64,000 bases of DNA from a virus (taxonomy: Duplodnaviria > Heunggongvirae > Uroviricota > Caudoviricetes), in IMG/VR virus record IMGVR_UViG_3300028888_000051, positions 163,384-227,383 of that record, one strand, 5' to 3'. Below are positions 7,062 to 54,344 of the stretch, piece by piece. Numbering within the stretch: the stretch's first letter is position 1; each line of letters begins with the position of its first letter. The translations under genes were made by a program, and so were the position numbers. The notes below the pieces were generated by a model. It was not told the DNA's origin, made no database searches, and saw nothing but the letters and a program-made list of their open reading frames with translations.

Positions 7062-7064
7062 TTA

Positions 7065-11552: not shown

Positions 11553-12092
11553 ATGACTAAAGTAAATATGATTGTTGCTATTGGTCCAGATAATATAATT
11601 GGATATAGTAATAAATTAGCTTGGCATTCAAAAAAAGATCTTGAGCATTTTAAAAATATAACTTTAAATAGACCAGTAATATTTGGAACAACAACTTTTT
11701 TTGGTTTACCTAAATATCCATTACCAAATAGATTAAATATTGTATTAGATAATAGTGAATATAAAGTATTTAATATCAATGCCATAAATGATAATAAAGG
11801 TGGTTGGATTGAAGCAACTTCAGTTGAAAGTGCCTTAGAATTTTGTAAAAATTTTGATAATATATTTATTTGTGGAGGAGCATCTATTTATAAATATTGT
11901 TTAGAAAAAAATTTAATAGATTGTGCATATATAACAAAAGTGAATTGTAAATTAGAAAATAGAGATGATTATATAAAATTTCCATTTGATATTAATAGAT
12001 ATTTAAATTATGAAAAATGGGATGCTAAATTAGAAGAAACAGTTTTTGATGAAGAAATTCAATTAGAATTCTGGAAATATATTAAAAAATAA
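11553..12092 (+). CDS. folA: dihydrofolate reductase
   Basis: MIVAIGPDNIIGYSNKLAWHSKKDLEHFKNIT, IFGTTTF and ICGGASIYKY match DHFR signature regions. Confidence 0.85.
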   Translation: MTKVNMIVAIGPDNIIGYSNKLAWHSKKDLEHFKNITLNRPVIFGTTTFFGLPKYPLPNRLNIVLDNSEYKVFNINAINDNKGGWIEATSVESALEFCKNFDNIFICGGASIYKYCLEKNLIDCAYITKVNCKLENRDDYIKFPFDINRYLNYEKWDAKLEETVFDEEIQLEFWKYIKK

Positions 12093-15626: not shown

Positions 15627-18611
15627 ATGTCAGAAAAACAATTACTTATCGAATCTTCTGATTTTAATCTTACTTGTAATTTATCAGAAAAAGACAGAGA
15701 AAATTTAACTGAATCTTTAAAAATTTCTGCAGGTAAACATGGTAATTTGATTGTCAAAAATATTCCATGTACAATACTTGATAGACGTAATCAAAATGGA
15801 CGTATATATCCTACAGCTTTAATGCAAAAAGCAATTAATGAAGCTATGCCAAAAATGAAAGCTAAAATGTTAGTGTGTTCTGCTTCTGAGCATCCTTCTG
15901 GAAGTTTTTGTGAACCAGCTAATATTTCACACGCTGTTATTAATGCATATATAAAAAATGTTGAAATTGAAGTTGAAGGTAAAAAAGAAAGACATAATGT
16001 ACTTTTTAATGATTGGGAAGTATTAAATGAAAAAAGTCAAGTTGCAGCTCATGTTCAGCAATTAATTTTATCTGGATTTGGTATAGGTACATCTATTCGT
16101 TCACTAGGTTCTTGTGATCCAGATGGTACAGTAACAGAATTAGAATATTTAGGAACTGATATTGTAGGACAACCTTCATCTTCTACTTATGTTAATATGC
16201 CAATTAATGAATCAGTAGAAGTAACAACAATTCCTTTAACAGAAACTTATGTTGTATCAGCTTCTGCTACAAATGTTGTAAGAGATTTAGATTCTGCATT
16301 AGCATTATCTCAACAAATTGATTCTGCTAATTTTGGTACTGTAAAAAAGACTTCTACAAAACTTGATTCTGAGGTTGATCCTAAAACGGGTGCAGAAACA
16401 ACAATGGTTACATTAGAAACTGAAACAGAAGATGAAGTATCAGAATTAGATCAAGCATTAATGATGGCTAAACAAGCCATGTTAAATGGAAAAGCTGATA
16501 TTGATTCTGTTACAATAGAAAATATTAAAGAAGAACAACCAAAAGAATCTGTTGAAAACAAAGATGATGAAAAAGCATTAAATGAAGAGAATAAAATAAC
16601 AGAAAATCATTTTGCTCCTTTACCTCATATTACTTCAATTACAAATCATATTTTATTGAATTATCCAAAAGAAAGCGAAGCTTATAAAGTAGCTTTACAT
16701 ATTCAAAATGATTTAATTACTAATAGATTAAAAGATAGACAAGCAGCTTTAGAAGAATTAAAAAAATATGTAGATATAACTAAAGACGAATATGTACCTG
16801 AATCTGTTATGAATGAAGTAGGTGTTGATAAGTTAATGGATGAAATTCGTAACATTATGTATAATGAAGGTTTGTCTCTTGAACAGGCTTGTCGTAAATA
16901 TTGTGAACATCATGAAAATATTCCATATGAATATGTATTGGAATATATGAGAACAAATCCAGTTACTGAATCAATTACAGAAGCTAAAGAAGAAAAGCAA
17001 GAAGATCCAAATGAAGGTAAGCAATATGTTTTGAAAACTTCTCAGGGTTTTGTTGCTATGGATGGTAATGCTATTTCATTTGTAGATAATCCTAAAGAAG
17101 CTATTCATTTTATTAAGGGTAAAGAAGAATCAGGAGTTGTTCATTTATCTGGAATTAATAAAATTCTTGAAACAATGGGTATATATGATGTACAAAAATA
17201 TTTTAAAAAAGGTACAACAGATATTTCCGCACCAAATGATATAAATATACAAAATGCCAAAAATGCAGGCATCGAAGTTAAAGAGTGTGGTAATATAGAT
17301 ATGCCAATGACTGAAGATAATGGCTCAAATACACGTTTTAAAGCTACTGTAAAAATTACTGATGAAAATGGAGAGTCTTCTGAAGATATTCCTGTTTCAG
17401 CAATTGATATGGAAGGTATTAATGCTGAAATTTCTAATCTTTATGATATGAAAAAACAAAAAGGTAATCCAGTTATCACTGTTACAGATACTACTTCTGG
17501 TCAACAATTTACATATAATCCAGAGTCTCGTCAAATTGAATTAATGAATATACAAACTGAAGCGAGTGGTGATTTAGAGCAAGATGGAAATAAACTTTCT
17601 ATGGAAATTGATGATAACAATAAAGTAGAAAAAGAATTTAATTCACCGGTACAAGCCGCAGTTGCAAAAGCAGGTATTGAAGCAGGCAAACTTGGTGGTG
17701 ATGTTCTTTTGAGTGAAGATGATGAAGATTCAGATACAGCTAAATGTGCATGGTGTGGTGAAGAATTTGAAAAATCTGCATTACGTAAAGAGAAAGATTT
17801 AGGTTATCTTTGTAACACTTGTGCAAAAGGAATTCAATCAAGAGAAGGTTCATTAACATTTGAAGAAGATTTAGCAAATGATCCACATATTTATAATCAA
17901 GGAAAAGATGAAATAGATAATGGTCAAGAACCTAATATGAATAAAATTGCGGATTCTATTCGCTATATTGCTAAAAAAACTGATTGCTCACTAAAAGATG
18001 CAATGGATATCTATGAAAAGATTACAGGTTTTAAATTTGATGAAAAAGATTCTATTTCAGAAGAAGTTCATAGACCAAATTATGAAGATATAGAACCAGG
18101 ATGGTATGCAGGAGCTCAAAATATTGGTGTTACTGGACCTTATGAATCAAAAGAAACATTGCTTGCAGATTTAGGTGAAGTAGCAGATAAAATTGATATT
18201 GAATATATTTCACCAGAAGATTTAGGGCTTGCTGCTGAATCATCTAAAATAGATGAAGTATTATATAATAAACCTAGTAAGGCTTCTGATCCATTAATTA
18301 AAACACCATTAGAAGAAGATGATGATGAATCTCCAGCGGTAAATATTTTATTTAAAAATATTGATTGGAATACTAAAGACTTTATGAATTCTATGATGGC
18401 TAATATGGAAAATGATGATCCTGTTAATATAGAAGATATAAAGTCAAAAGTAAAAGATTTACCAGATGAAGCAACTATTACTGTTAAAGTTAATGAAATA
18501 CCTTTATCTGATGATAGTTTACTTGAAAAATTTTTATTTGATAAACTTGGTAAAAAGTATGCCATGAAAGTAAATAATGCAGAAATGGCAAATATAAGTT
18601 GGGCAGTATAA
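15627..18611 (+). CDS. T4 gp21-like prohead core protease fused to a roughly 800-aa acidic extension
   Basis: N-terminus aligns by eye with T4 gp21 (MSEKQLLIES; NQNGRIYP; SASEHP; GTSIRSLGS). The remainder is Glu/Asp-rich with an internal CAWCG..CNTC zinc ribbon. Confidence 0.75.
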   Translation: MSEKQLLIESSDFNLTCNLSEKDRENLTESLKISAGKHGNLIVKNIPCTILDRRNQNGRIYPTALMQKAINEAMPKMKAKMLVCSASEHPSGSFCEPANISHAVINAYIKNVEIEVEGKKERHNVLFNDWEVLNEKSQVAAHVQQLILSGFGIGTSIRSLGSCDPDGTVTELEYLGTDIVGQPSSSTYVNMPINESVEVTTIPLTETYVVSASATNVVRDLDSALALSQQIDSANFGTVKKTSTKLDSEVDPKTGAETTMVTLETETEDEVSELDQALMMAKQAMLNGKADIDSVTIENIKEEQPKESVENKDDEKALNEENKITENHFAPLPHITSITNHILLNYPKESEAYKVALHIQNDLITNRLKDRQAALEELKKYVDITKDEYVPESVMNEVGVDKLMDEIRNIMYNEGLSLEQACRKYCEHHENIPYEYVLEYMRTNPVTESITEAKEEKQEDPNEGKQYVLKTSQGFVAMDGNAISFVDNPKEAIHFIKGKEESGVVHLSGINKILETMGIYDVQKYFKKGTTDISAPNDINIQNAKNAGIEVKECGNIDMPMTEDNGSNTRFKATVKITDENGESSEDIPVSAIDMEGINAEISNLYDMKKQKGNPVITVTDTTSGQQFTYNPESRQIELMNIQTEASGDLEQDGNKLSMEIDDNNKVEKEFNSPVQAAVAKAGIEAGKLGGDVLLSEDDEDSDTAKCAWCGEEFEKSALRKEKDLGYLCNTCAKGIQSREGSLTFEEDLANDPHIYNQGKDEIDNGQEPNMNKIADSIRYIAKKTDCSLKDAMDIYEKITGFKFDEKDSISEEVHRPNYEDIEPGWYAGAQNIGVTGPYESKETLLADLGEVADKIDIEYISPEDLGLAAESSKIDEVLYNKPSKASDPLIKTPLEEDDDESPAVNILFKNIDWNTKDFMNSMMANMENDDPVNIEDIKSKVKDLPDEATITVKVNEIPLSDDSLLEKFLFDKLGKKYAMKVNNAEMANISWAV

Positions 18612-19472: not shown

Positions 19473-20246
19473 ATGTTTATAAAAATAATTAAATTCATGT
19501 TTAGTTGGTTTAATAAAAAAGAAAAGATCGAAGAATCAAAACCTGTTGAAGTACAAGAAAAACAGGAATCAAAACCAATTACAGTATCAATTGAAAAAGA
19601 AAATGAAAAAATTAAATTAACATGGTTATTTTTACGTGAAACATTATATAAAGTTAATAATAATCTTAATAAGAATGATTGTGATTATTATTATGAAGCT
19701 TTAAATAAAATACTTCCTCAATATGAAATTAATACTAAACTCAGAGTTTGTCATTTTTTGGCACAAATTTTACATGAAAGTGGGCATTTAAAATATAAAT
19801 CTGAAAATTTAAATTATTCTGCGAAAGCTTTACGTTCTGTTTTTGGCAAATATTTTAAAACAGATGAAATCGCAAAAGCATATGAAAGAAAGCCAGAAAA
19901 AATTGCTAATAGAGTATATGCTAATCGCATGGGTAATCGTAATGAAGCGAGTGGTGATGGGTATAAATTTCGTGGGCGTGGACTTATTCAACTCACTGGA
20001 GCTAACAATTATAAGATTTGTGGACAAGATTTAGGTTTAGACTTAGTAAAAAATCCAGATTTAATTATATCTGATCCAGAAATTTGTGTAAAAACAGCTT
20101 GTTGGTTCTGGAATAAGAACAAATTAAATGAATTAGCAGATAAAGATGATATAAATGCTATAACAAAATGTATTAATGGTGGCTTAAATGGAATCGATGA
20201 TCGCCGTAAAATATTAAATTTAGCTAAAGATAAAATAAATATATAA
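19473..20246 (+). CDS. endolysin, glycoside hydrolase family 19 (chitinase-like lysozyme)
   Basis: FLAQILHESGHLKYKSENLNYS and YKFRGRGLIQLTGANNY are GH19/COG3179-type signatures. About 60-aa Lys/Glu-rich N-terminal extension. Confidence 0.8.
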   Translation: MFIKIIKFMFSWFNKKEKIEESKPVEVQEKQESKPITVSIEKENEKIKLTWLFLRETLYKVNNNLNKNDCDYYYEALNKILPQYEINTKLRVCHFLAQILHESGHLKYKSENLNYSAKALRSVFGKYFKTDEIAKAYERKPEKIANRVYANRMGNRNEASGDGYKFRGRGLIQLTGANNYKICGQDLGLDLVKNPDLIISDPEICVKTACWFWNKNKLNELADKDDINAITKCINGGLNGIDDRRKILNLAKDKINI

Positions 20247-20818: not shown

Positions 20819-21715
20819 ATGTCAAATGAATTAGTATTAAATTCAGAATGGACGCCTTTTTTAATAGAAAACAGAGCTTCTATTACATTTGATAAATTTT
20901 TAGATTTAATTAAACAATTAGATAACAATAGTTCACCAAATTTATGGACAAAATGGAAAAATTATGCTAATCAAGTAGTTATAGAAACACCAAATTACTA
21001 TTTTAAGTTATATGAAGATGATTATTTATGTGGTTCATTTTGGTCATTAATTCGCTCTACTTTAGGAGAGATATATACAAAATATTTTAATATTTTGTGG
21101 GATGTTAATATTATAAAGCAAAATAGTAAAATATATACACTCGAAAGACGTCAAAAATTAAATGTATGTATACCGAATTCAATTTTATATACTGATTTAC
21201 TTCTTAATTGGTCAAATACACTTAAAAAACTAGAAAATGAACTTTTATTATCAGAAATATGTCAACAACTTAAACCATATATTCCAGAATTAGCAGAACT
21301 TAAGTTGATACGTAATTGTATAAATAAATATGCAGATTATGCTATTACTGAAGATAATAATATTGTACTTTTAGATGATTCCGATTGGTTTATAGCTATG
21401 GTTGATAAAAACGGTAAATGGTTAAATTCAAAATTTAAAGGTTATAATATAATTTCTAGTTTAGGAGAAACAATTTTTGCTCCAGAGGGTTATTTTGATA
21501 AAGGAAATATAACTAAACATGAAGAATTTACAAATAAATGGCAAATTTATATGGAAAATATTAAAACTACAGAAATAGAAGGAATTTTATTTGATCAACG
21601 TGAACAAATGCTCAAAGATAATATATCTTTGATATTTAATCAAAAACTTTTGCCTAATCAAAATATAAAATCTTTTGATTCAGTAGGTGATTTACTTAAA
21701 ATTGGTTTTGAATAA
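20819..21715 (+). CDS. hypothetical protein (298 aa from the internal ATG)
   Basis: Track ORF starts at 20789 inside the upstream gene. ATG at 20819 (MSNELVL) follows the upstream stop and is the more likely start. The 3' end overlaps the convergent rSAM gene by 20 nt. Confidence 0.5.
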   Translation: MSNELVLNSEWTPFLIENRASITFDKFLDLIKQLDNNSSPNLWTKWKNYANQVVIETPNYYFKLYEDDYLCGSFWSLIRSTLGEIYTKYFNILWDVNIIKQNSKIYTLERRQKLNVCIPNSILYTDLLLNWSNTLKKLENELLLSEICQQLKPYIPELAELKLIRNCINKYADYAITEDNNIVLLDDSDWFIAMVDKNGKWLNSKFKGYNIISSLGETIFAPEGYFDKGNITKHEEFTNKWQIYMENIKTTEIEGILFDQREQMLKDNISLIFNQKLLPNQNIKSFDSVGDLLKIGFE

Positions 21716-22742
21716 ATTCTCTATCACAGATAACACATTCATCAGAATCTATATAGGCGCAATAATTTAGTTGATGTCCACATTTAGCTGTAAGAAATTC
21801 TAAGCAATTACCTTCTTTTTCATTTAATTCATTTCGTGTATGTTTATTTCTATGATTTAATTGCATACGATGATTATCATCTGATTCATTGAAATTTCTA
21901 TACAAATCATCTGCACGATAAATTATATTAAAAAGTTTATCATATAAACCTGGGCAATCTTCTTTAAATTTAATTAAAAATTTTAAAAAATCTTCTCTTT
22001 TTGGAAAAAAACCCGGTAATCTTTTTTCCATTAATTGTTTAGCTTCCATGTATTGTTCAATTTTTGATAAGTTTTCATGAATAGGTTTAATTCCACCTGG
22101 AGAAGGTTGTTTAAAAAACATAGAAGTATGATATTTATTCATAAAATCATTAAAAGAAAATTCACCATTCAGATATTTGGTAATTATATCTTGAGTTAAA
22201 ATGGTACAAGTGTTAAAATTTAATGTTGGATATTTTTCATGTAAATTTAACATGTTATTTGACCAATTTTCTTGCATTTTTGGTAAATGAAAACGACCGA
22301 TCGTATCATAAGATGTAACAAGCCATACTTGATTTATTAATTCTGGTTTTCCGGCTTGAATATACATTTTTTTCATAATATCCAAAGAAGTATATAAATC
22401 TTTTTGTGAACCTATTGTAAGGGTACACATAATCCATACTTCACGTATTTTACCTGAAATTTGTAATTCTGCAGTTTTTTGCATAAGATTAAAAAATTTA
22501 TTTTTGACTTCATCTACATCAAGTTGACCTTGAAAAAATTCTCCACCTATATAAGATACTGTGTTATATGGAATCATTTTTTTGTTATCAGATAAAAAAT
22601 TATAAGCATCATCAAGTGCCTTAATTTTTAATTCTGTTGGTGTAAAGCTATTACTGTTTGCATTATAACAAAATACACATTTTTGATTACATTGATGCCA
22701 TAATTCAAACTGTAAACTCTTTTTTTCATTTATATCCATCAT
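21696..22742 (-). CDS. radical SAM enzyme, paralogue D (348 aa)
   Basis: CNQKCVFC (CxxxCxxC) at residues 18-25; YIGGEFF; C-terminal CGHQLNYCAYIDSDECVICD. Confidence 0.8.
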   Translation of the reverse strand: MMDINEKKSLQFELWHQCNQKCVFCYNANSNSFTPTELKIKALDDAYNFLSDNKKMIPYNTVSYIGGEFFQGQLDVDEVKNKFFNLMQKTAELQISGKIREVWIMCTLTIGSQKDLYTSLDIMKKMYIQAGKPELINQVWLVTSYDTIGRFHLPKMQENWSNNMLNLHEKYPTLNFNTCTILTQDIITKYLNGEFSFNDFMNKYHTSMFFKQPSPGGIKPIHENLSKIEQYMEAKQLMEKRLPGFFPKREDFLKFLIKFKEDCPGLYDKLFNIIYRADDLYRNFNESDDNHRMQLNHRNKHTRNELNEKEGNCLEFLTAKCGHQLNYCAYIDSDECVICDREFIQNQF

Positions 22743-23659
22743 TAGTCTCCTATCATTTCTAAAAAGTTTTCAACATCACTTCTTGGATGTATGTTAGAAT
22801 CAAAATATCCATAATTGTTTTCATCACAATAGGTATTCTTTTTATTTTCTGAATTATGTCTATCATTCATAATATAAAAATCTTTATCGTCAAATGAAGA
22901 ATAACATGTATCACTATGATTTACAATATTTATAAAATTTTCTAAATCATCTTTTGTAAACATTTTTGTTTCATAAGTATATTGTAAAAATTTAAGAAAG
23001 GTTTCTCTTCTCGGAAAAAAATTAGATAAAATTTTATTTTCGAAATCTTCAACATTTTTACATAGATGACCATAACCAGTCATTGGTAGCATATAATTTG
23101 TAAAGCAATTATAATTTTCATTGAATTCTTTTAAATTTAAACGATTAGACAACACTGCTTCTAACATAGCTTGAGTAACAATCATTTCAACATGAAGTTT
23201 TAAATTTGGATAATTTTTATGTAAAAATAACATATTATTTTGCCAATTTTTTAAAGTGTTATTATTAAATCTACCAATTATATCCCAAGAAGTACAAATC
23301 ATAAATTGATTCTGAAAGTTCTTTATATATTCACAAAATTCTAATAATTCAGAATTATCATCAAACATTAAAGCTGTTGTAATAAGACAGCGTTTAGCTA
23401 TTCCCATTTTAATTTTATTTATAAAACAGTCTATAATTTTATAAAAGTATTTTTTAACTTCAGCTGTATCTATTTCACCATTAAAAAATTCTCCACCGAT
23501 TATACCAAAATCAGAATATTTATCAGCTTCTTTTGTATTAAGAATATCTAAAACTTTTTTCATACATTTAACTTTATCTCTATGTCTAGGTATACCGTTA
23601 TTATAGCAAAATTTACATCCAAATGAACATTGTTTCCATAATTCAAATTGTAAAAACAT
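22742..23659 (-). CDS. radical SAM enzyme, paralogue C (305 aa), C-terminal Cys module degenerate
   Basis: CSFGCKFC; IIGGEFF; C-terminus YCDENNYGYFDSN lacks the EC..CD part. Confidence 0.8.
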   Translation of the reverse strand: MFLQFELWKQCSFGCKFCYNNGIPRHRDKVKCMKKVLDILNTKEADKYSDFGIIGGEFFNGEIDTAEVKKYFYKIIDCFINKIKMGIAKRCLITTALMFDDNSELLEFCEYIKNFQNQFMICTSWDIIGRFNNNTLKNWQNNMLFLHKNYPNLKLHVEMIVTQAMLEAVLSNRLNLKEFNENYNCFTNYMLPMTGYGHLCKNVEDFENKILSNFFPRRETFLKFLQYTYETKMFTKDDLENFINIVNHSDTCYSSFDDKDFYIMNDRHNSENKKNTYCDENNYGYFDSNIHPRSDVENFLEMIGD

Positions 23660-23660
23660 A

Positions 23661-24584
23661 TTACTCTCCTAGTATAAGTAAATCACAAAGCATACATTCA
23701 TCTGAATCTGCATAACATCTATATAATTCACTATGACCACATTCGGTAATATTTTCTTTACCATCAGATAAAATTGGTTGTTGAGTTATATCATTATTTT
23801 TATTACGTAAACCAGTATATTTATAAATCGCCGAAGCGTTAGTTGAACTATACATATTAGTATATATCTGTGGAAAGTTTTCTTTCAAATATATACAAAA
23901 ATTAAGAAAATCTTCACGTTTGAAGAAAAAGTCATTTAATTTAAAACCAGAATGTATTGGATGAGGATATAAAAAACAAAAATTACATCCTTTTAGTTCT
24001 TCTTCTAAAAAATATTTAAAATCAAATTTGTTAGACATAATATCATCAATAAGATATTGAGTTAAAATCATTTGAACTCCAACTGCATAATTATATCTAT
24101 CTCTAAATTTTTTGATATTTTCTAAAGCTAATAATCTTTTTTCTTCTGAAGGATATCTATATTTTATATCATAAGAAAAATTTACATCTATAAATCGCAT
24201 GTCTCCTGTTTTTTCTTTGATTCTGTCTATAACACGAAATAAAAATGCTGGATCATACATTCCATTAGTTACAGTTGAATAGCGACATCTATAAGAAGTA
24301 CTAACTAATAATATTTTATTTATGATGTCATCTATTAAAAGCATAAATTCATCTTGTATATCTTTATCGGTTATAAAATACAATTCACCACCTAAAAGAG
24401 ATATACCATCAGCAAATTTATCTTTCCAATCAATATAATCCAAATTTTTTCTTATTTTATGTATTTCTTCAATAAGTCTAGATTTATCCCAAACTTCACG
24501 ATTTTTTCGTAAACAGAATTTACAGTTATTGTTACAATTTGGCCAAAGTGAATATTGATTCATATAATGTTTAATTTCTAACAT
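23661..24584 (-). CDS. radical SAM enzyme, paralogue B (307 aa)
   Basis: CNNNCKFC; LLGGELY; C-terminal CGHSELYRCYADSDECMLCD. Confidence 0.8.
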   Translation of the reverse strand: MLEIKHYMNQYSLWPNCNNNCKFCLRKNREVWDKSRLIEEIHKIRKNLDYIDWKDKFADGISLLGGELYFITDKDIQDEFMLLIDDIINKILLVSTSYRCRYSTVTNGMYDPAFLFRVIDRIKEKTGDMRFIDVNFSYDIKYRYPSEEKRLLALENIKKFRDRYNYAVGVQMILTQYLIDDIMSNKFDFKYFLEEELKGCNFCFLYPHPIHSGFKLNDFFFKREDFLNFCIYLKENFPQIYTNMYSSTNASAIYKYTGLRNKNNDITQQPILSDGKENITECGHSELYRCYADSDECMLCDLLILGE

Positions 24585-25451
24585 TTACATTTTCTCCATT
24601 ATTTCTTTTAGCACTTTACAATCACAAACAAAACATTCATTTGAATCAGAATAACATTTTTTAAAATTTTCTGAATGACCACATTTACTTTTATTTGATG
24701 AGATATCAACTAGTTTTCCATTTTCAGATTTTTGTAAAATAATATTTTGATTTAAAAGAAAATTATTACAATATTCTGTACCATAACCTGGAAGTTGTTC
24801 ATTAAGTTTTAGAATAGTTTTAAAAACAGTTTCTCTTGTTGGAGCTTTTATGTCTTTTCCAAATTTTATATAGGGTATTGTATTTACTTTAACGTTATAG
24901 TTATTTTCATACTCAGCTATGTTAAATTTTTCAGATAATACATCATTACAAAAACTTCTGGTTAAAATAATATTGACATATATAAGTAACTCAGGAAATA
25001 AATTTCTAATTTCAGTGAGATTAAAATAAAATTGTTTCATAGAAAAAGAATTAGAAAATCTTCCATCTCCATCACCAGAAGTAGTAAAATGTATTCTATT
25101 TTCTAATTTATAATCTTTTATCATATTTAATATTGGTAAAAGAAGTTCATGAATATCATATAAAATATTTGTATTAATATAACATAATTCAATTTCATTT
25201 TTTAACATTTTTTCACAAGTTAATTTGAATAATTTAAATAATTGTGAATTTATTATTGTATTTTTTTCTGCAAATATTTCACCACCAACGAATAGTATAT
25301 GTGTATCAGTTAAGTCTTTTACTGCATTATATATTAATTTTATCGATTCAAGTTGTTCTTCATGAGTTTGTTGTTTTTCTCTTTTTTGCCAGCAAAATTT
25401 ACAATTATTTGGACAATTATTCCAAAGAATGAATTCATGTATAGGTAACAT
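24585..25451 (-). CDS. radical SAM enzyme, paralogue A (288 aa)
   Basis: CPNNCKFC; FVGGEIF; C-terminal CGHSENFKKCYSDSNECFVCDC; first gene of the four-gene operon. Confidence 0.8.
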   Translation of the reverse strand: MLPIHEFILWNNCPNNCKFCWQKREKQQTHEEQLESIKLIYNAVKDLTDTHILFVGGEIFAEKNTIINSQLFKLFKLTCEKMLKNEIELCYINTNILYDIHELLLPILNMIKDYKLENRIHFTTSGDGDGRFSNSFSMKQFYFNLTEIRNLFPELLIYVNIILTRSFCNDVLSEKFNIAEYENNYNVKVNTIPYIKFGKDIKAPTRETVFKTILKLNEQLPGYGTEYCNNFLLNQNIILQKSENGKLVDISSNKSKCGHSENFKKCYSDSNECFVCDCKVLKEIMEKM

Positions 25452-34921: not shown

Positions 34922-35536
34922 ATGATAGAAGAAATTTTAGAAGAAAAATCACCAAAAGAGCAAGGGGAAGAAAAGCTTGCTAAAATGCTTGAACAACACC
35001 CCGAACTTAAAAACTATGCAAAGTTTATGGTGAATGATGAAGGCGAAATTGTATATAAAGTAATCATAGAGCCTAGTAAATTTGACATCGCCTTTGATGA
35101 TTATTTCTTTTTGAAAAATCACCCAGAAGATGAAAATGCTAAGTTTATTGATGACTTTTATGAATACGTTTACAACCTTGTATCTAAGTGGTGTGAAGAG
35201 AATAAGGATTATACTATTGACTGTTGGCAAAACCACTACACTGTTCGCAAGAGTGATGAGGTTGAAAAAATCCATTATGAGTCTATGAGTGAAGATGAGA
35301 AAAAATCATATGATGAAAGAAAACTACAAGAAAAGATAGATTCTAAACGTGCTGAACGTGATAATTTACTCACTATGGTTGTTGACCCAATTGTTACAAA
35401 TCCACTACGTTGGGAAGAACTTTCAGACGCTGAGAAGTCAAAATATCGTGCTTATCGGTTGTATTTATTAGATATTCCACAGCAAGAGGAATTTCCTGAT
35501 ATTGAGATTAAGTCTTTCGAGGAGTTTAACGCATGA
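34922..35536 (+). CDS. tail fibre assembly chaperone (Tfa-like)
   Basis: C-terminal RDNLLTMVVDPIVTNPLRWEELSDAEKSKYRAYRLYLLDIPQQEEFPD matches the lambda/P2/Mu Tfa pattern; immediately follows a fibre gene. Confidence 0.6.
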   Translation: MIEEILEEKSPKEQGEEKLAKMLEQHPELKNYAKFMVNDEGEIVYKVIIEPSKFDIAFDDYFFLKNHPEDENAKFIDDFYEYVYNLVSKWCEENKDYTIDCWQNHYTVRKSDEVEKIHYESMSEDEKKSYDERKLQEKIDSKRAERDNLLTMVVDPIVTNPLRWEELSDAEKSKYRAYRLYLLDIPQQEEFPDIEIKSFEEFNA

Positions 35537-36171
35537 TTTGGTTATACAGTATTATAAGTGCACTTACTTTTAGAATAAGAGGCGGGTTAAGAATACTATT
35601 TACAGATAAGAAATTTCCTCTATGCAAATGGTGGTTTGCAACAGCTTTTGCTACATTAGCTTGGTTTTTGAAATATAATAATTTTACTTTTGAAAGTTTT
35701 AATTATTGGTTAGTGTTATTAATAGCAAGTAGATTATCTACACAAATGGCTGGTTGGGGTGAATATTGTGGTTGTGTACTTGGTATAGGCAAACCTAATC
35801 CAGAAAGAAAAGACTTCCCTAAAGTAGATGATTTTCTAGACAATCTTAAATGGGATGCTCATGATATTAAAATATGGAAATGGACAATTCATATTCCAGC
35901 TTTTAATTTATTAGATCATCCTATTTTATTCGGATGGTTAGGCTTATCAGCTAGAGGTTTATATTTATCATTTATTATTGGATTAGCCTTAAATTCTGTA
36001 ATATTTATGCTTTGTGGAATTATGATGGGTACAATTTATTGGTTATGTGGATTATTTGCACGCAAAGTACTAAAGAAAATGGATAAAACAGGATGGAATA
36101 TTTCTGAATGGGTATTTGGAGGTTATCTTGGCTTATTCTTATATATTTGTATTAAAATAACTATATTTTAA
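35533..36171 (+). CDS. polytopic membrane protein (212 aa)
   Basis: Five or six hydrophobic segments; 4-nt overlap with the tfa-like gene. Confidence 0.55.
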   Translation: MIWLYSIISALTFRIRGGLRILFTDKKFPLCKWWFATAFATLAWFLKYNNFTFESFNYWLVLLIASRLSTQMAGWGEYCGCVLGIGKPNPERKDFPKVDDFLDNLKWDAHDIKIWKWTIHIPAFNLLDHPILFGWLGLSARGLYLSFIIGLALNSVIFMLCGIMMGTIYWLCGLFARKVLKKMDKTGWNISEWVFGGYLGLFLYICIKITIF

Positions 36172-36199
36172 ATCTGTTAGTATTAATTATATATAAAAT

Positions 36200-36226
36200 A
36201 AAAGGTACTCATAGTAAGTACCTTTT
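36200..36226. terminator. bidirectional terminator between convergent operons
   Basis: Stem AAAAGGTACT/AGTACCTTTT, 7-nt loop, A-run before and T-run after. Confidence 0.75.
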
Positions 36227-36250
36227 ATTATTTTTATCTATTAAAATTTT

Positions 36251-37018
36251 TTATTTTACACTGTTTATAAATGGAATTGGAGCTGAGCCATAAATATTTA
36301 CTGGTAATTTTCCATCCCATTTTTGTACAGCTTCATAAGCAACTAAATTTTGATTTTTACTTAGGGCTTCAGAACGAATAGCCATTGACTTAGCCTCTGC
36401 TTCAGCAGCAAGAACTTTTTGTTTAGCTTCTTCTTGGACTTCAGCTGTTCTATTCCTTGCTTCTTCAGCCTTTTGTGTTGCTACAACTTTAGCTTCAATT
36501 GCTCTTTCAAAAGCATCTGTATATTCAATATTATTTAAAGAAACTGAACTTATTTTTATATAAAAAGCTGTCAAAGTTGTATTTAAATCTCTTTTAATTT
36601 CATCTGTAGCTTTTTCACGATTAGCAACAAGATTTGCAGCATCCCATTTACCAATCACATCTTTAACAACAGCCTCAGCATTAGGACGTAATACTTTTTC
36701 TTCATAATTTTTACCAATTTCACGATGTAAATTAATAATATTATCTAAATCAAGACGATAATTGAGAGTAATTTTCATATTAGCCGTTTGAATATCTTTT
36801 GTATAGGTCTCTATTTCCATTGTATATTTTTGAGTTTTACCTTCATATTCAATTACATTACCACCAAATGGCATATAAAAATATAAACCTTCTTCTAATG
36901 GCTTTTCTGAAGTAATTTCACCCCACATTGTCTTCAAACCACGATTACCTGTATCAATTTGCTCACCACATCCAGTTAATGAGCAAACAATAAATAAAAC
37001 AGTAAAAATTTTTTTCAT
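36251..37018 (-). CDS. SPFH/band-7 (prohibitin-like) lipoprotein
   Basis: Lipobox SLTGC after a signal peptide; SPFH core; Ala/Glu-rich coiled coil QKAEEARNRTAEVQEEAKQKVLAAEAEAK; WDGKLP ending typical of the prohibitin/HflKC class. Confidence 0.8.
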   Translation of the reverse strand: MKKIFTVLFIVCSLTGCGEQIDTGNRGLKTMWGEITSEKPLEEGLYFYMPFGGNVIEYEGKTQKYTMEIETYTKDIQTANMKITLNYRLDLDNIINLHREIGKNYEEKVLRPNAEAVVKDVIGKWDAANLVANREKATDEIKRDLNTTLTAFYIKISSVSLNNIEYTDAFERAIEAKVVATQKAEEARNRTAEVQEEAKQKVLAAEAEAKSMAIRSEALSKNQNLVAYEAVQKWDGKLPVNIYGSAPIPFINSVK

Positions 37019-37034
37019 TTGTATCCCCTTTAAT

Positions 37035-37229
37035 TTATTTATCTTTTTGTGAATAAAGTTTATTTATTATCTTTTTTCTACCATTACTAGTTAAAAATAA
37101 TATTGGTGAAAAAAGAATAATAAGTAATTTTGTTTTTGGTTTAAACATTCGATTAAATTGCATAATAATTATAAATGCCCATATTGTAATAAAATAAGCA
37201 CATAAAATACGTAAAATTAAAATACTCAT
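37035..37229 (-). CDS. small membrane protein (64 aa, two hydrophobic segments)
   Basis: Sits directly upstream of the SPFH gene in the same operon. Confidence 0.5.
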   Translation of the reverse strand: MSILILRILCAYFITIWAFIIIMQFNRMFKPKTKLLIILFSPILFLTSNGRKKIINKLYSQKDK

Positions 37230-37244
37230 TTATTATTTTCTCCT

Positions 37245-37871
37245 TTAAAATCCAGTAGCAACTAAAACTAAAGCATTTTCTTTAACTTCAACTGGTATTT
37301 CACCAATTGTATGATATTTAAGTGTATGTAATTCATAATAAGCATTAAATTTTCTTTCAGCAATTACATGATAACCGTTAATTGTTTCAAATGTTGCTTT
37401 ATAATATTTATCACAAAGATTAATAACTTTATCTAATAAAGCTTTACTTTTACTATCTATATCAAATAACCAATATCTACTCTTTTTATCAGAAGAAGTA
37501 TCTTTCATACAATTACTTGTTAATAATTTTGCATAATTTTTTGCTGAAAATTCAATTCTTTGATTACATAAAGCTGGATCTAATAATTTAGTTATATCAT
37601 CACGTAAAGTAACCATAGATTTAATATATGATTTTCTATCAGTACACATATAAAGTCTACATTTATTATCTTCTATTACTTTTTTCATTTCAGGTATGTA
37701 CCAATATAAATCTTTAATACTAGATATTACCCAAGTTTGTATGATTTTACTTTCTTTTTCTAAATAAATTTTTGGATCATCTTTTCTACGCTTTAAAGCA
37801 ATAAAAAAGTAATAAGAATGACCAATATTGTATTTCATTATGAAATCTAATTTATCAAAGTTATTAATCAT
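37245..37871 (-). CDS. hypothetical protein (208 aa) with DxD and G-Y-H motifs
   Basis: YWLFDIDSK ... TINGYHVIA is reminiscent of AEP primase-polymerase motifs I/II; unverified. Confidence 0.45.
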   Translation of the reverse strand: MINNFDKLDFIMKYNIGHSYYFFIALKRRKDDPKIYLEKESKIIQTWVISSIKDLYWYIPEMKKVIEDNKCRLYMCTDRKSYIKSMVTLRDDITKLLDPALCNQRIEFSAKNYAKLLTSNCMKDTSSDKKSRYWLFDIDSKSKALLDKVINLCDKYYKATFETINGYHVIAERKFNAYYELHTLKYHTIGEIPVEVKENALVLVATGF

Positions 37872-37882
37872 TAAAGGTCTCT

Positions 37883-38470
37883 TTATTGATGGTTTTTAAC
37901 TATTTCATCAGTAACACCATAATCAATTGCTTCTTCTGCTGACATCCAAAAATCACGTTCACAATCTTTTTTAACTTGATTAATATCTTTATTTGTAGCA
38001 TTAGCGATCATTTGCATTAACATATCTTGTAATCTGCTAACTTCTTCTAATGTAATTTTCATATCATGAACATTTGCTTGCATACCACTACTAACAGAAT
38101 GAAGCATATATCTAGCATGAGGCATTATTTTACGCATACCTTTTGTACCAGATAATGCAATCATAGCATCCATAGAGGCAACTTCACCTGATACAATAGT
38201 TGATACAGGACATGAAATCATATTCATAGTATCAATAATCTGTAAACCAGCTGTTACACTTCCACCTGGTCCACTAACAATCATTGTAATAGGTTTATCT
38301 TTATCTTCTGCTTCTAAATATAAAAGTTGAGCAACAACACTTTCGGCTAATTCATCATCAACTTTACCACAACATAAAATTAATCTATCACGAATTAATC
38401 TTGAAGTAATATCAACTTGACGTTCGTTACCATTAGAATCTTTATAAATAACTGATGGAATTCCTATCAT
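37883..38470 (-). CDS. clpP: ATP-dependent Clp protease proteolytic subunit
   Basis: GPGGSVTAGLQIIDTM, GEVASMDAM (catalytic Ser context), MLHSVSSG (His) and WMSAEEAIDYGVTDEI are collinear with ClpP. Confidence 0.85.
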   Translation of the reverse strand: MIGIPSVIYKDSNGNERQVDITSRLIRDRLILCCGKVDDELAESVVAQLLYLEAEDKDKPITMIVSGPGGSVTAGLQIIDTMNMISCPVSTIVSGEVASMDAMIALSGTKGMRKIMPHARYMLHSVSSGMQANVHDMKITLEEVSRLQDMLMQMIANATNKDINQVKKDCERDFWMSAEEAIDYGVTDEIVKNHQ

Positions 38471-41027: not shown

Positions 41028-42377
41028 TTAAGCTATAATATTATCTGGTCCATTATTAATTGATAAATCATATTTTTGTTTATAAAAAGGACCTACTTTA
41101 TTTAGCATTTTTTTAACCGTAGAGTGAATACTTTCATTTTCTAAATCAATTATGCCTTCAGGAACCTCTTGCTTACCACGAAGTAAAATACGAGCAATAA
41201 GTTGACCTAATTCAAAGCACATAGATTCATCAAAACCCCGAGTTGTAATCGCTGGAGTACCAATTCTAATTGCAGAAGATTCAGATGGTTTAGTATCACC
41301 CGGCATCATGTTTTTATTACAAATAATATGATATGATGTTAATAAGTCTTCAGCCTGTTTACCATTTATACCAGAATTTCTAAGGTCTACTAATACCATA
41401 TGATTTTCTGAGCCATTACTAATGAATCCTATTTTATTTTCTTTATCGAAATCTCTTATACCATTGATAAGTGCTTGCATATTACAATATACTTGTTCTA
41501 TATAATCTTTAAATTCTGGTTTGAGAGCTTCAATAAAACATTGTGCTTTAGCAGCAACAAGTGCTTCATTTGGACCACCTTGAATTTTTGGAAAACACCC
41601 ACTGTTAATTTTACTACAAAGTTTTTGGTCATTCCAAAGAATTATACCACCACGAGGTCCTCTTAAAGTTTTGTGTGTTGTAGAAGTGATCACATCACAC
41701 CATTTAGTTGGATCATATTTATCTTTCCATAAATGAGCAGCAATAAATCCCATTACATGAGCTGAATCAGACATAAGATAACATTTTGTTTCTTCATCCC
41801 TACCAAGATTATATACATCTACCAATTTCCTTATATATTCATAATTAATTCGTTTAGAATAAGCTGAAGCTCCAACAACTAACATTCTTGGATGATATTG
41901 AAGTAATTTTTGTTTAATTTCTTCATAATTCAATTCACCATTTTCATCAAGACCATAATATACAGGATTATATATATGACCTGTTAATGAAGCTTTAGAG
42001 TAGTGTGTCAAATGTCCGCCATATTCTATGCCCATTCCAAGTACTGTATCACCTGGTTTTAAAAGACCTGCATATACAGCTTGATTAGCCTGAGAGCCAG
42101 AATGAGGTTGAACACAAGCAAAATTTACATTAAATAATTCTTTAGCTTTTTCTATAGCATAATTTTCTACTTCATTTATTACTTCACATCCAGCATAATG
42201 ACGTCCCTGTTTAGAAACTTCATTTGGAAATCCTTCTGCATACTTTACAGATAAATGACTTCCCAAAAGATCAAGAATATCTTGACTTGGATAGTTTTCT
42301 GAAGCTATTAATTCAATACCATCATTAAGACGATTTGTCTCTTTGCTTTCTAATTGTTGTAATTTTTGATCAATCAT
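41028..42377 (-). CDS. glyA: serine hydroxymethyltransferase
   Basis: LIASENY, YAEGFP, VQPHSGSQAN, GGHLTH and TTHKTLRGPRGG (PLP-Lys context) are all present in order. Confidence 0.95.
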   Translation of the reverse strand: MIDQKLQQLESKETNRLNDGIELIASENYPSQDILDLLGSHLSVKYAEGFPNEVSKQGRHYAGCEVINEVENYAIEKAKELFNVNFACVQPHSGSQANQAVYAGLLKPGDTVLGMGIEYGGHLTHYSKASLTGHIYNPVYYGLDENGELNYEEIKQKLLQYHPRMLVVGASAYSKRINYEYIRKLVDVYNLGRDEETKCYLMSDSAHVMGFIAAHLWKDKYDPTKWCDVITSTTHKTLRGPRGGIILWNDQKLCSKINSGCFPKIQGGPNEALVAAKAQCFIEALKPEFKDYIEQVYCNMQALINGIRDFDKENKIGFISNGSENHMVLVDLRNSGINGKQAEDLLTSYHIICNKNMMPGDTKPSESSAIRIGTPAITTRGFDESMCFELGQLIARILLRGKQEVPEGIIDLENESIHSTVKKMLNKVGPFYKQKYDLSINNGPDNIIA

Positions 42378-47684: not shown

Positions 47685-48028
47685 TATTTTGTTTCCTTAT
47701 ATCCTTCAAAATTCCAAAAATCTATCATATTTTCACCATGTAAATATTCAATAGCAAATTTAGGAAAGTGACACCAAGTATTGTCATCAAGCATAATGGC
47801 TATGTCATTCTCATCACTTCTTTTTCTTGCAAACAATTTTGAAGATTCACACCAACCAATTATTTTGCTCTTTATAAATTCCTTGTTTTCGTACATATCA
47901 TAAAAATTTGTACAAAATTCACGATTCCAATTTTCAAAAAGAAATTTATTACTTGATAATTTCGGAATACTATTACTCATACTTTTACTTTCAAATGTGA
48001 TAAAATATACATAACATGTATAATTCAA
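47684..48028 (-). CDS. hypothetical protein (114 aa), first gene of the minus-strand chain
   Basis: Faces the 350-bp divergent intergenic region 48029..48380. Confidence 0.5.
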   Translation of the reverse strand: MNYTCYVYFITFESKSMSNSIPKLSSNKFLFENWNREFCTNFYDMYENKEFIKSKIIGWCESSKLFARKRSDENDIAIMLDDNTWCHFPKFAIEYLHGENMIDFWNFEGYKETK

Positions 48029-50991: not shown

Positions 50992-51210
50992 ATGTATGAA
51001 AAATTAATAGATCTTAAAGATAATTTTTTATTTTGTATTGCAACTACATTTGTTGGAATTTTAATTATGATAATAGCTAGTGTTATTATAATTATAACAC
51101 TTCCAATGTATTATTTATTTTGGATAAATCCAGTATTTGAAATTTATCAAAATTTAATTTGGAAAATATATGATATATTATTTCAAATTGGATCAGATGA
51201 TGAAATTTAA
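50992..51210 (+). CDS. small membrane protein (72 aa, two hydrophobic segments); holin-like topology
   Basis: FLFCIATTFVGILIMIIASVIIIITLPMYYLFWINPVF; AAAGGAAA RBS. Confidence 0.45.
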   Translation: MYEKLIDLKDNFLFCIATTFVGILIMIIASVIIIITLPMYYLFWINPVFEIYQNLIWKIYDILFQIGSDDEI

Positions 51211-54200
51211 ATTAAGTCTTGCAATTCTTCAGAAGATTGATCTATAAAATTTGAATAATCATTTACTTTTTCTTTTATTTGATTAGAAGAAATATATTCA
51301 TATTGCGGAAAATCTGAATAATTAAGCTGTGCATTATATATAAAACCAACAATTACATCAGCTAAATCTTTTAATTCAGTAGTTCGAGTTACTTTTCCTC
51401 TATCAAAAACAAGAGCCGATAATTCTTTTCTGAGTTTTGGACATATTCCTACTTTTACCTGTCCTAATTCCATTAAAGTAGATGCATTAACATAAGGTTC
51501 AAGTTTTATATCGACTGAAACTTTATTTACTACTTCGAAACATCCCGATTTAGCTAAATTTTGTTGAAAAATTTCTCCATTCCATTGATCGCTTGATACT
51601 GTATGAATTAGCATATTACGTTCAATTACTAAATTTATTAAAAAAGTTTCTATTGCATGTATATCTATTTTATTTCTTGCATTCACAGCTATAAGTAAAT
51701 CAACTACATATATTGTTTCATTTTCTTTTTTATTTTCATTATAACGCCATTCTTTATGACCAATACATATACCAGCATCACATTGTCCAGAATCACCACC
51801 TCCTGCTAAATCTACATGACAATAACGTTTTGCAAAAGGAGCTCTTTTAAATATCCATCTACCATCTGTTAATTGTTCCCATAAATTATATTCATCTAGT
51901 AAAGCTAATATATCATTATTATCACTTATATCAGCTTTAATATTAAATTCTGGAGGCAATTCAGCATCTTCAATTTTTGATATATCTTTAAAGACTGTAC
52001 TGTTATCTACAGTTGTCATTCCTGCAATATCTTGAATAGACTGATCTAATTGTAATTCAAATTTTTCTTTATATACAGTTGGAACATTTATTACTTCACA
52101 TCCAATGGGTGGTATATAATTTCCATCTTCTAAAGCTTTCAATTCACCAGGATCGGTAAATATTTTAGAAGGAATTGAGCCATTACCAACAAGAACAGGA
52201 AATGTAGAGCCATCACCTAAAAACTCAGGATCTTCTTTAACTTCCCAAAGCCGAGGCATAAGAATAAGAATAGATGGATCATTTTTTGGCAATCGACGTA
52301 TGTATTCACCAATAGGACTATTTGTTGTACGAGCTGATGATACAACTGACTGAAATACTAAAGGACTTCCTTGAAAACGTGAACTAAAACGATTATCAAC
52401 TGAATTAAGAAGTGCCAAAGCTTCATCTACACCTTTTTCATTGATCTCATCCATAAAGCTATTTACTATATTCAAACCTATAGTATGAGTTATACCTGAA
52501 CCAGATGTAATAATAATATTGTCTGGAAAATATATCGTGCCTGTCGATTTTTCCACATTAAATGGTATTGGACAATGTGGATCCGATAAATCAAAATTTT
52601 CAAAAGATTGCATTCGCATAACTCTTTGAAAACACGGCATTGTTTCCATAAGTTTAACAAATGGTAATAAATTTGTTTCATAAACTTGTTTTAAAGTCAT
52701 AGAAATAATAACATTTGCTATTGTTGCATCACTATCTATATTAAATACTGCTCTAGGATAACGTAAACATAATATACGATATAAAACATATAAAAAAGCT
52801 TTACGAGCAATTGTTGACTTACCACAATTATGTGCAATTATACCAGCCTTTAAAGCAAAATTATGATTTTTTTCTGTAGTTATATCATAAACTTGTTGTT
52901 TACCTATATATTCTATAGAAATTATTTTATGATTGTATATTTTTTTACGCTTGTAATTTTCTTTAGCCCCTAAAGTAGGATCATACCAAGGCTCTCTTGT
53001 ATGAATAAATGCTAATAATTCAATGTATTTTTGATTTTCTTTTCCATGGAATCTTGCAATAGTAGCTAATACTTGTTTAGCCAATATAATTGCTTTTTCT
53101 TCAGGACTTTTGTTGGCTTTTAAATTACGCATATTTTCAGCCATTTTTTTAGAAATATTTCTAGCCTTTTCTGTTTTATTTCTTTCTATTAAAGTTTTAC
53201 TTGCTCTTTGTCTATATTCTTCACTATGTGGACCATTCCAACCGGCAAGCGAAGCTTTTCTTTGGTGTTCTGAATCTTGATGTAGTTTATTCCATCCAAT
53301 TTTTCTTTTTGCTTCTATCTCTTCATAATCTAAGCGAGCTTTATAGGTAATATGACTTTTTATTCCTTTTTGTCTTCTGTATTCTTTAAATTCATCACCT
53401 CTAATTGAAGCATTATATTCTTTCCATCTTCTACCTCCAACTTTAGCGTGATATTCCCAATGATATTTGTGAGGTATAATAGCTAAATTTTGAGGTCTAT
53501 CATCTAATTTATTAAAATTTTTATGGTGAACAACTTGTCCAGTTTTATATAAAGTTTTCCATTTACCTACTATTTGATATCTTTTTTCCCATTTTTCAGT
53601 AGTATTATTTTTTATTTGAATATATCCTTTATCACTAATTTTTGAATAATAAGGCATCATAGATTCACCAGATTTTAATCCAGTATCTATACTTTTCCAT
53701 TTATTTTTTCTTGTTAAAAATCTATGATCTGATGTACATTTAATTATTTCACCATTGTCTAAAGTTATTTTATACACATCTTTTATACCACTACAAAATA
53801 CATTAATTATCTTATCTGGTTCCCAAGTTTTATTAAATGTATTAAATGATAATACCCATTCATTATTATAATTATTAAGTAATTCATAAATTGTTTTATT
53901 ACCATTTAAAGTAGCTACTATCGTATCACCGGTTAAGCAACCAATACTTCCACCAAATATAGTTTTTCTTACTGGTGAGCCTTCCCTAAACATATATTCA
54001 AGTTGTTGTCGCCAATAAGGATATAATGTAGCATTACTATTATACATATAAAATTTACCAGATAAAAATTCTTCAATATTAGGCATAGGTCGTCTATATA
54101 AAAGATTATCAATTTGATCTGTTAAATCAGAATCCTGATTTGTTAATGTCAAATATAAAGCAATACGTTTTTGTATTTCTTGTTGCTTTTTAAATTCATC

Positions 54201-54344
54201 TGGCATATAATGCTCTTCATAATATGCTAAAATGTCTATAAAATCTTGTGACATAATAACATTTTGAAGTTCATTTGCATTATTAAATGAAACTATTGGA
54301 AGATTTTCTAATTTTTTTGCAATATCAGTAGGAAGTTGTTCCAT
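51207..54344 (-). CDS. terL: terminase large subunit, interrupted by an intein in the Walker A motif
   Basis: The exteins join to FGGSIG|CGKST (P-loop). Walker B-like SFMDEINE. Nuclease-domain pattern CHVDLAGGGD...DAGICIGH. Confidence 0.85.
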   Translation of the reverse strand: MEQLPTDIAKKLENLPIVSFNNANELQNVIMSQDFIDILAYYEEHYMPDEFKKQQEIQKRIALYLTLTNQDSDLTDQIDNLLYRRPMPNIEEFLSGKFYMYNSNATLYPYWRQQLEYMFREGSPVRKTIFGGSIGCLTGDTIVATLNGNKTIYELLNNYNNEWVLSFNTFNKTWEPDKIINVFCSGIKDVYKITLDNGEIIKCTSDHRFLTRKNKWKSIDTGLKSGESMMPYYSKISDKGYIQIKNNTTEKWEKRYQIVGKWKTLYKTGQVVHHKNFNKLDDRPQNLAIIPHKYHWEYHAKVGGRRWKEYNASIRGDEFKEYRRQKGIKSHITYKARLDYEEIEAKRKIGWNKLHQDSEHQRKASLAGWNGPHSEEYRQRASKTLIERNKTEKARNISKKMAENMRNLKANKSPEEKAIILAKQVLATIARFHGKENQKYIELLAFIHTREPWYDPTLGAKENYKRKKIYNHKIISIEYIGKQQVYDITTEKNHNFALKAGIIAHNCGKSTIARKAFLYVLYRILCLRYPRAVFNIDSDATIANVIISMTLKQVYETNLLPFVKLMETMPCFQRVMRMQSFENFDLSDPHCPIPFNVEKSTGTIYFPDNIIITSGSGITHTIGLNIVNSFMDEINEKGVDEALALLNSVDNRFSSRFQGSPLVFQSVVSSARTTNSPIGEYIRRLPKNDPSILILMPRLWEVKEDPEFLGDGSTFPVLVGNGSIPSKIFTDPGELKALEDGNYIPPIGCEVINVPTVYKEKFELQLDQSIQDIAGMTTVDNSTVFKDISKIEDAELPPEFNIKADISDNNDILALLDEYNLWEQLTDGRWIFKRAPFAKRYCHVDLAGGGDSGQCDAGICIGHKEWRYNENKKENETIYVVDLLIAVNARNKIDIHAIETFLINLVIERNMLIHTVSSDQWNGEIFQQNLAKSGCFEVVNKVSVDIKLEPYVNASTLMELGQVKVGICPKLRKELSALVFDRGKVTRTTELKDLADVIVGFIYNAQLNYSDFPQYEYISSNQIKEKVNDYSNFIDQSSEELQDLI
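52827..53939 (-). mobile_element. class-1 intein (371 aa) with HNH endonuclease domain
   Basis: Starts CLTGDTIV; block B CTSDHRF; HNH core VVHHKNFNKLDDRPQNLAIIPHKYHWEYH; ends VYDITTEKNHNFALKAGIIAHN followed by the +1 Cys. Coordinates derived from residues 136-506 of the track ORF. Confidence 0.8.

Follow-up and report, generated by a model that had tools for sequence, protein, structure and literature searches.

A ClpP gene, a putative primase-like gene and a prohibitin-type SPFH gene with a small membrane-protein partner at the end of a gene run in a jumbo-like gut phage

During the analysis of a 64,000-nucleotide stretch of a Caudoviricetes genome (IMG/VR record IMGVR_UViG_3300028888_000051, positions 163,384 to 227,383; hereafter designated the window), we examined a block of four genes at 36251-38470 that encode a ClpP protease, a protein of 208 residues, a small membrane protein of 64 residues, and a prohibitin-type SPFH protein. 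Of the four genes, those of the small membrane protein and SPFH form the true co-conserved pair, the former being a conserved partner located upstream of the latter. The block as a whole probably represents three independent units that have come to lie together by chance where a run of early/accessory genes reaches its 3' end. The units are regarded as independent because ClpP and the 208-residue protein are found together without SPFH, the small membrane protein and SPFH without ClpP, and the 208-residue protein without either. An initial annotation had proposed that ClpP, the small membrane protein, and SPFH represent a split version of the NfeD-SPFH pairing, a model that is largely refuted by the outcome of the co-conservation analysis. 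Both ClpP and SPFH genes have been described in phages before, and finding them side by side here reflects lineage-specific mosaicism; what is modestly new is a small-protein partner for SPFH genes of the prohibitin type and a putative primase-like fold in the 208-residue family.

Gene layout and conservation of the block

The window has a GC content of 26% and a phage-like gene content, and its source is an AT-rich, jumbo-like phage of gut-metagenome origin. The positions given in the initial annotation for four consecutive minus-strand genes agree exactly with the list of open reading frames (ORFs), namely, a ClpP proteolytic subunit of cellular type (195 residues, 37883..38470), the 208-residue protein with a putative archaeo-eukaryotic primase (AEP)-like (prim-pol) fold as a putative nucleotidyltransferase (37245..37871), the 64-residue small membrane protein (37035..37229), and the prohibitin-type SPFH (Band 7) lipoprotein (255 residues, 36251..37018). 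The genes of the block are separated by 11, 15, and 16 nt, the gap to the next upstream gene is 21 nt, and the four genes are probably co-transcribed. The minus-strand gene run begins near 48028, and a bidirectional terminator-like hairpin (36197..36229; 13-15 bp stem, T-rich tails on either strand) is situated between the SPFH gene and a convergent plus-strand gene of the tail-fibre cluster. Since this hairpin with its T-runs lies just past the SPFH gene, SPFH is the last gene of the run, in agreement with the earlier description of the block as the end of a long operon. Megablast of the four-gene block against GenBank phages gave no match.

When co-conservation of the four genes was checked on relatives, the full block was found only in locus L016, which has the identical gene arrangement with ClpP, the 208-residue protein, the small membrane protein, and SPFH being 90%, 88%, 49%, and 93% identical to those of the window, respectively; elsewhere, ClpP occurred without SPFH and SPFH without ClpP. 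Thus, in L017/L018 (208-residue protein, 70% identical; ClpP, only 50%), ClpP and the 208-residue gene are followed by unrelated small genes, with no SPFH gene. L019/L020 (208-residue protein, 44%) show the order serine hydroxymethyltransferase (SHMT)-ClpP-(HNH)-208-residue gene, with an Hsp100 ATPase gene 2.5 kb downstream and no SPFH gene within 10 kb, and L001/L002 (ClpP, 81%; 208-residue protein, 46%) show the order 208-residue gene-radical SAM-ClpP, convergent on the terminase gene and also with no SPFH gene. The opposite situation was observed in L003, where an SPFH gene (86%) is preceded by the small membrane protein gene and neither ClpP nor the 208-residue gene is present in the 8 kb upstream. 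In six more loci (L021, L022, and L108-L111), the 208-residue gene (34-41%) has neither ClpP nor SPFH within 10 kb.

The search was extended from the SPFH side. A further 12 phage SPFH loci (±8 kb) contained no ClpP, and none was found within 20 kb of SPFH in Lak-B2, though Lak megaphages have both genes. ClpP was also absent from 79 of the 80 bacterial SPFH loci (±6 kb), the remaining one having a ClpP-like fragment about 5 kb off on the other strand. As for an NfeD-type co-conservation of the protease with SPFH, the window and L016 are the only cases in which ClpP adjoins SPFH, and ClpP is absent by SPFH in L003-L015 and L023.

The ClpP and 208-residue genes, moreover, differ discordantly in their identities to the window, ClpP being the more conserved in L001 (6238-8588) and the 208-residue protein in L017 (9400-10624). 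Such discordance implies independent exchange of the two genes and, judged from these sequence comparisons, indicates recombinational exchange inside an SHMT-anchored region. Relative to the window, the gene order in L001 is reversed and a radical-SAM/SPASM gene is inserted.

The SPFH protein and its small membrane partner

The product of the last gene had been described as a prohibitin-like SPFH protein with a lipobox, and this description was borne out. The protein matches Band_7 (PF01145) with E 7e-29 and 101.5 bits (cut-off, 23.6) and phrog_200 ("lipoprotein") with E 1.5e-52, and its N-terminus, MKKIFTVLFIVCSLTGC, passes a PROSITE-style lipobox pattern (LTG/C). Its best matches among solved structures are prohibitin-2 (PHB2; E 2e-24) and prohibitin-1 (PHB1; E 2e-21), in contrast to just 2e-6 for stomatin, and the PHB2 alignment spans SPFH residues 31-229, with the helical region included. 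On the basis of these far better matches to prohibitin than to stomatin, the protein is assigned by sequence to the prokaryotic prohibitin-like subgroup SPFH4 of Hinderhofer et al. The lipobox match leads to the prediction that the SPFH domain lies outside the cytoplasm, and the SPFH domain and coiled-coil are together predicted to be exported and lipid-anchored. Homologues of the protein are anchored by either a lipobox or a transmembrane (TM) helix.

As in prohibitin, HflK-HflC, and SPFH4 (PMC2636767), the Band_7 domain of the phage protein precedes a long helical region, and a conserved motif (YEAVQKWDGKLP) is present at the C-terminus. Its predicted extracytoplasmic orientation agrees with that of HflK/C and with the periplasmic one that has been argued for SPFH4 (PMC2636767). 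The phage protein differs from this group in being phage-encoded and anchored by a lipobox rather than an N-terminal TM helix. It differs further from the SPFH4 proteins in being preceded by a conserved membrane protein of about 60 residues, which is unreported for SPFH4 in that survey (PMC2636767). If prohibitin and HflK/C are taken as a guide, the SPFH protein, once exported, would probably assemble into an oligomeric ring or cage at the outer surface of the cytoplasmic membrane, with the hairpin-like small protein as its integral-membrane partner or client. The two together could modulate some process at the membrane, e.g., quality control of the FtsH type or the stability of membrane proteins of the phage, although, unlike for prohibitin and HflK-HflC, a link of the phage SPFH to FtsH is an analogy only.

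In the 64-residue ORF, a strong hydrophobic helix and another, less extended hydrophobic segment were predicted, followed by a basic C-terminal tail (...LTSNGRKKIINKL), which is consistent with the two-helix membrane peptide of the initial annotation. It is conserved in relatives at 49% and 44% identity and also has homologues in bacteria; this conservation identifies it as a real gene. A hairpin ORF of about 60 residues lies directly 5' of lipobox-type SPFH genes in L003, L004, L005, L008, L016, and Erwinia phage S6, in which the corresponding product, gp044, is annotated "membrane protein".

The relation between the two genes was further analyzed with a hidden Markov model (HMM) that was derived solely from the three nearest phage peptides and searched against 18,813 ORF segments from all loci. 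At E<=0.01, the HMM matched only ORFs immediately 5' of SPFH genes (gut Alphaproteobacteria metagenome-assembled genomes (MAGs), L032-L039, and the viral locus L008), and the next match was in a Bdellovibrionales locus (L079, E 0.023). After iteration, the matches covered 14 loci and revealed a common tail motif, ...LFPxLxLTxKGRxKI. In the bacterial loci, ORFs of 50-95 residues with >=2 TM segments and ending <=150 nt upstream were counted, with the other genes of the same loci as controls; such a small multi-TM ORF precedes 63 of the 79 bacterial SPFH genes, in contrast to 9 of the 513 control genes. The HMM matches confirm that such ORFs are homologous, and the results support the small membrane protein as a conserved partner of the SPFH gene, a part of the original proposal that held. 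A Pfam search at E<=1 with nine small membrane proteins (the peptide and its homologues) gave noise only and no family. In Gastranaerophilales, a second type of small protein (63 residues, with the loop NLYQKYGKQ) occupies the same place 5' of SPFH.

Phages frequently carry SPFH genes, matches being obtained in 494 GenBank phage records. Among cellular proteins, the nearest homologues of the SPFH protein (up to 62% identity) come from gut/rumen Alphaproteobacteria MAGs, followed by Gastranaerophilales. The cellular homologues at 50-62% identity (GTDB loci L028-L041) have a GC content of 33-43%, as compared with 26% in the phage, and are flanked by housekeeping genes. Since the closest cellular versions of both SPFH and the peptide are found in gut Alphaproteobacteria, the cassette appears, from sequence similarity, to have been probably captured from the host lineage, and it provides a host lead for this uncultured jumbo-like gut phage.

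The small protein is thus strongly and specifically linked to prohibitin-type SPFH genes and is a candidate for the missing partner of bacterial prohibitins. Tentatively, and with odds somewhat against it, it may be conceived that the hairpin protein of about 60 residues is an unrecognised dedicated partner of bacterial SPFH4 and a minimal functional counterpart of NfeD for the only major SPFH class with a reported lack of partners. The cassette would then be common to gut Alphaproteobacteria and Melainabacteria and captured by their phages, the phage copy serving as a tool to take over, in the course of infection, a prohibitin/FtsH-like compartment of membrane quality control.

A comparable pair is known from the lysis region of Staphylococcus phages of the genus Kayvirus, in which the SPFH protein MbpS adjoins MbpV, a protein with an N-terminal TM segment and a basic C-terminus whose function is speculative (PMC7150955). 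As in the window, an SPFH protein and a small membrane protein with a basic C-terminus are encoded in one short gene interval (lysK-tgl in Kayvirus). MbpS is, however, stomatin-like and located between the endolysin gene and tgl, whereas the SPFH protein here is a prohibitin-type lipoprotein with the endolysin gene 16 kb off.

The ClpP protease and the 208-residue protein

The first gene of the block had been reported to encode a full-length ClpP with intact Ser and His contexts, and both points were confirmed. The protein matches Pfam CLP_protease (PF00574) over residues 14-193 of 195 with E 9e-62 and 208.6 bits (cut-off, 20.2). Its best solved homologue is H. pylori ClpP (PDB 2zl0, E 3e-49), and the alignment with this protein retains the columns of the triad, i.e., Ser (GEVASMDAM), His (YMLHS), and also Asp (ERDFWM), the serine column being identified through the S99A mutant entry 2zl3. 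The score of 214.1 bits with the NCBIfam ClpP subfamily model NF001368 is under the cut-off of 249, and that of 193.9 bits with the equivalog TIGR00493 is under the cut-off of 308.6. The protein is accordingly divergent but, by its sequence, clearly ClpP-type, and it is predicted to be catalytically competent. It has neither a signal peptide nor a TM segment, and is about 40-47% identical to bacterial and jumbo-phage ClpPs.

Full-length cellular-type ClpPs are annotated in several jumbo phages, including Xanthomonas phage XaC1, Atu_ph07 (gp676), Salmonella phage Munch, and Serratia phage BF; Atu_ph07 carries seven Clp-family genes (PMC6102473). The ClpP of the window resembles cellular ClpP (MEROPS S14) and these accessory ClpPs in its full-length fold match, its Ser-His-Asp triad, and its distance from head genes, and differs from them in scoring below the NCBIfam equivalog cut-offs. 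Most probably, it is an accessory protease subunit that would work in the cytoplasm with a Clp unfoldase, degrading host or phage proteins during infection. We infer that the unfoldase partner may be host ClpX, ClpA, or ClpC, or a phage Hsp100 protein like those in related contigs. Two-ring Hsp100/Clp ATPases were observed in three of these contigs: that of L021 (18295-20562) contains ...KRRIGFGSDD..., with an IGF loop at the ClpP-docking position of ClpA/ClpC, that of L019 (13232-15397) has no IGF loop and is ClpB-like in appearance, and that of L110 (18550-20696) adjoins a DnaJ_C gene. The L022 contig carries GroEL and Hsp20 genes.

The 208-residue protein belongs to a family of at least 61 clusters in a protein database search, all metagenomic, with contigs reaching 275 kb in length. 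Scanning IMG/VR with a back-translated pattern revealed no relatives, those used here having come from the protein database, and tblastn against GenBank phages gave a single weak match. AlphaFold2 modelling with 38 homologues yielded a confident model (pLDDT, 90.8). Asp137 and Asp139 (D137 and D139, on the WLFDID strand) and His168 (H168, in NGYH) are invariant in the 38 sequences and resemble motifs I (DxD) and II (His) of the AEP superfamily, which makes them candidate active-site residues, with the equivalence drawn from sequence. E195, a candidate for the third acidic (motif III) residue, is not invariant.

None of the 38 family members matches the curated AEP Pfam families, although a sub-threshold match to Poly_A_pol_cat extends across the DxD region. 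Profile search of the family against PDB sequences gave no match, and Foldseek of the model against the PDB gave nothing significant. The protein differs from the RepB' primase of RSF1010 and the AEP domain of cyanophage S-2L PrimPol in matching no AEP Pfam profile, in having neither a helicase nor a zinc domain, and in its variable third acidic motif. A search of BFVD showed that the fold is common to uncharacterised phage proteins, e.g., I7JVR5 of the T4-like Campylobacter phage CP21 (TM-score 0.79, 18% identity); judged from the models, this match takes the fold family beyond gut metagenomic phages. The neighbours of the 208-residue gene in the distant relatives (L021, L022, and L108-L111) include genes for RNA ligase, an endonuclease V-like protein, metallophosphatase, dCMP deaminase, ThyX, and dUTPase. 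The protein is best read, from its model and residues, as a putative nucleic-acid enzyme that has a primase-like fold and shows no evident connection with proteolysis or membranes. It may belong to the nucleotide and DNA-RNA metabolism region, tied to ClpP only by synteny near SHMT. The family, hitherto consisting of uncharacterised jumbo-phage proteins, gains a confident model and candidate active-site residues.

Competing explanations and other genes of the window

Several observations weigh against the interpretation of the block as three independent units. The genes are tightly packed, co-directional, and probably co-transcribed, and the block is intact in L016, so that lineage-specific cooperation may exist; co-expression of ClpP and the cassette for a joint purpose in this phage lineage is a weaker possibility. 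ClpP and the 208-residue gene stay close in five lineages despite a changed gene order, which might reflect more than synteny. Furthermore, a search of the window with the L019 ATPase brought up no Clp unfoldase, and neither a Clp ATPase nor ClpS can be seen there, in which respect the phage ClpP also departs from the cellular and jumbo-phage systems. In the literature, we found no experimental work on phage SPFH function.

The closeness of ClpP and the 208-residue gene raises the question of a functional pair, in which the 208-residue protein would be a substrate, adaptor, or regulator of ClpP, or ClpP would control replication or priming factors. ClpXP acts on the lambda O protein, a model for such control of priming. 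In the five lineages (208-residue protein, 44-88% identical), about 1.2 kb or less separates the two genes, even with the reversed order or with a radical-SAM or HNH insert. ClpP is, however, missing within 10 kb of six more distant family members, the two proteins are discordant in their identities across the relatives, and every ClpP-bearing case is in the same SHMT-anchored region, so that common descent accounts for the linkage. A functional pair is therefore considered unlikely.

The possibility that ClpP is a prohead (capsid maturation) protease is more remote still. ClpP-fold (S14) prohead proteases are used by many phages, and PHROG head-maturation families do match the protein (phrog_94, E 3e-32), but the cellular model is far stronger and full-length, including the N-terminal region, with 214 bits as compared with 70.4 bits for the ClpP-related head maturation model NF045542 (cut-off, 120). 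Moreover, the protein has no scaffold or capsid fusion, and its gene has SHMT and small unknown ORFs as neighbours, in a cluster that is non-structural and lacks head genes. The initial annotation had likewise considered a head-protease role unlikely, and the sequence evidence upholds this; ClpP is most probably an accessory cytoplasmic subunit.

That annotation had also invoked a gp21-like prohead protease elsewhere, for which the support is moderate. A plus-strand ORF of 994 residues (15627-18611) is a candidate gp21/S77-like head protease: a match to phrog_207, a family of head-maturation proteases, covers its first ~250 residues (E 1.3e-11), the long C-terminal extension being uncharacterised; its score with Pfam Peptidase_S77 (T4 gp21 family), in contrast, is 16 bits and below the cut-off.

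The split NfeD-SPFH model, in which ClpP acts as an NfeD-type protease on or with an SPFH scaffold at the membrane, with the peptide included, is equally improbable. It draws on the adjacency and probable co-transcription of the genes, on the retention of the block in L016, on a weak, sub-threshold NfeD1b_N match of ClpP, and on the ClpP-class domain of the long NfeD1b proteins, which may stem from fusion with a ClpP gene (PMC2636767). Co-conservation, however, stops at the relative that is about 90% identical, and ClpP is absent by SPFH in 13 phage loci and 79 of the 80 bacterial loci. The NfeD1b_N (PF25145) match amounts to 16.8 bits (cut-off, 40), as compared with 208 bits for CLP_protease, and no NfeD OB-fold was found by Pfam search in the four proteins or, even at E<=1, in the peptide and its homologues, the peptide being too short for the domain. 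In addition, NfeD partners have been found for the stomatin-type (SPFH1), flotillin-type (SPFH2), and SPFH5 classes, and none for SPFH3, SPFH4, or SPFH6-12 (PMC2636767), whereas the SPFH protein here is prohibitin-type. The predicted compartments are also opposite, the lipobox placing SPFH outside the cytoplasm and ClpP having neither a signal peptide nor a TM segment.

What the block does share with the NfeD-SPFH operons (the Pyrococcus NfeD/stomatin pair PH1510-PH1511, E. coli YbbJ-QmcA/YbbK, and B. subtilis YuaF-FloT) is a co-conserved membrane-protein gene immediately 5' of SPFH. The upstream protein here is nevertheless only about 60 residues long, with neither the NfeD OB-fold nor a protease domain, the SPFH protein is not of the stomatin or flotillin type, and ClpP is of the canonical soluble type and not co-conserved with SPFH. 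A split NfeD-SPFH-ClpP system, if true, would be a new phage membrane-proteolysis machine; the evidence shows ordinary mosaic neighbourhoods. Of the further roles suggested earlier, control of lysis timing lacks positional support, with the endolysin gene 16 kb away, and interference with host defence found no backing in a PADLOC scan of six proteins, which gave no meaningful match to defence systems.

The other genes of the window include a large terminase of 1045 residues with HNH-endonuclease/intein-like matches in the middle of the ORF (51207-54344, minus strand), tail-fibre genes, an endolysin (19473-20246, plus strand; phrog_181, E 6.7e-82), dihydrofolate reductase (11553-12092, plus strand), SHMT (41028-42377, minus strand), and an SbcC/SbcD-like nuclease pair (5196-8099, plus strand). 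The phage carries a folate/thymidylate metabolism set. Among the relatives, the terminase has 1044 residues in L003, and in L001 its reading frame seems to be broken close to the end of the contig. A polytopic membrane ORF of 212 residues (35533-36171, plus strand) immediately follows the tail-fibre chaperone gene, converges on the SPFH gene, and shares its terminator hairpin; it has no match in Pfam, PHROGs, or PADLOC. Four consecutive ORFs of about 290-350 residues are located at 21696-25451 (minus strand), and two ORFs of L016 (288 and 307 residues), length-matched to two of these, have weak Radical_SAM matches.

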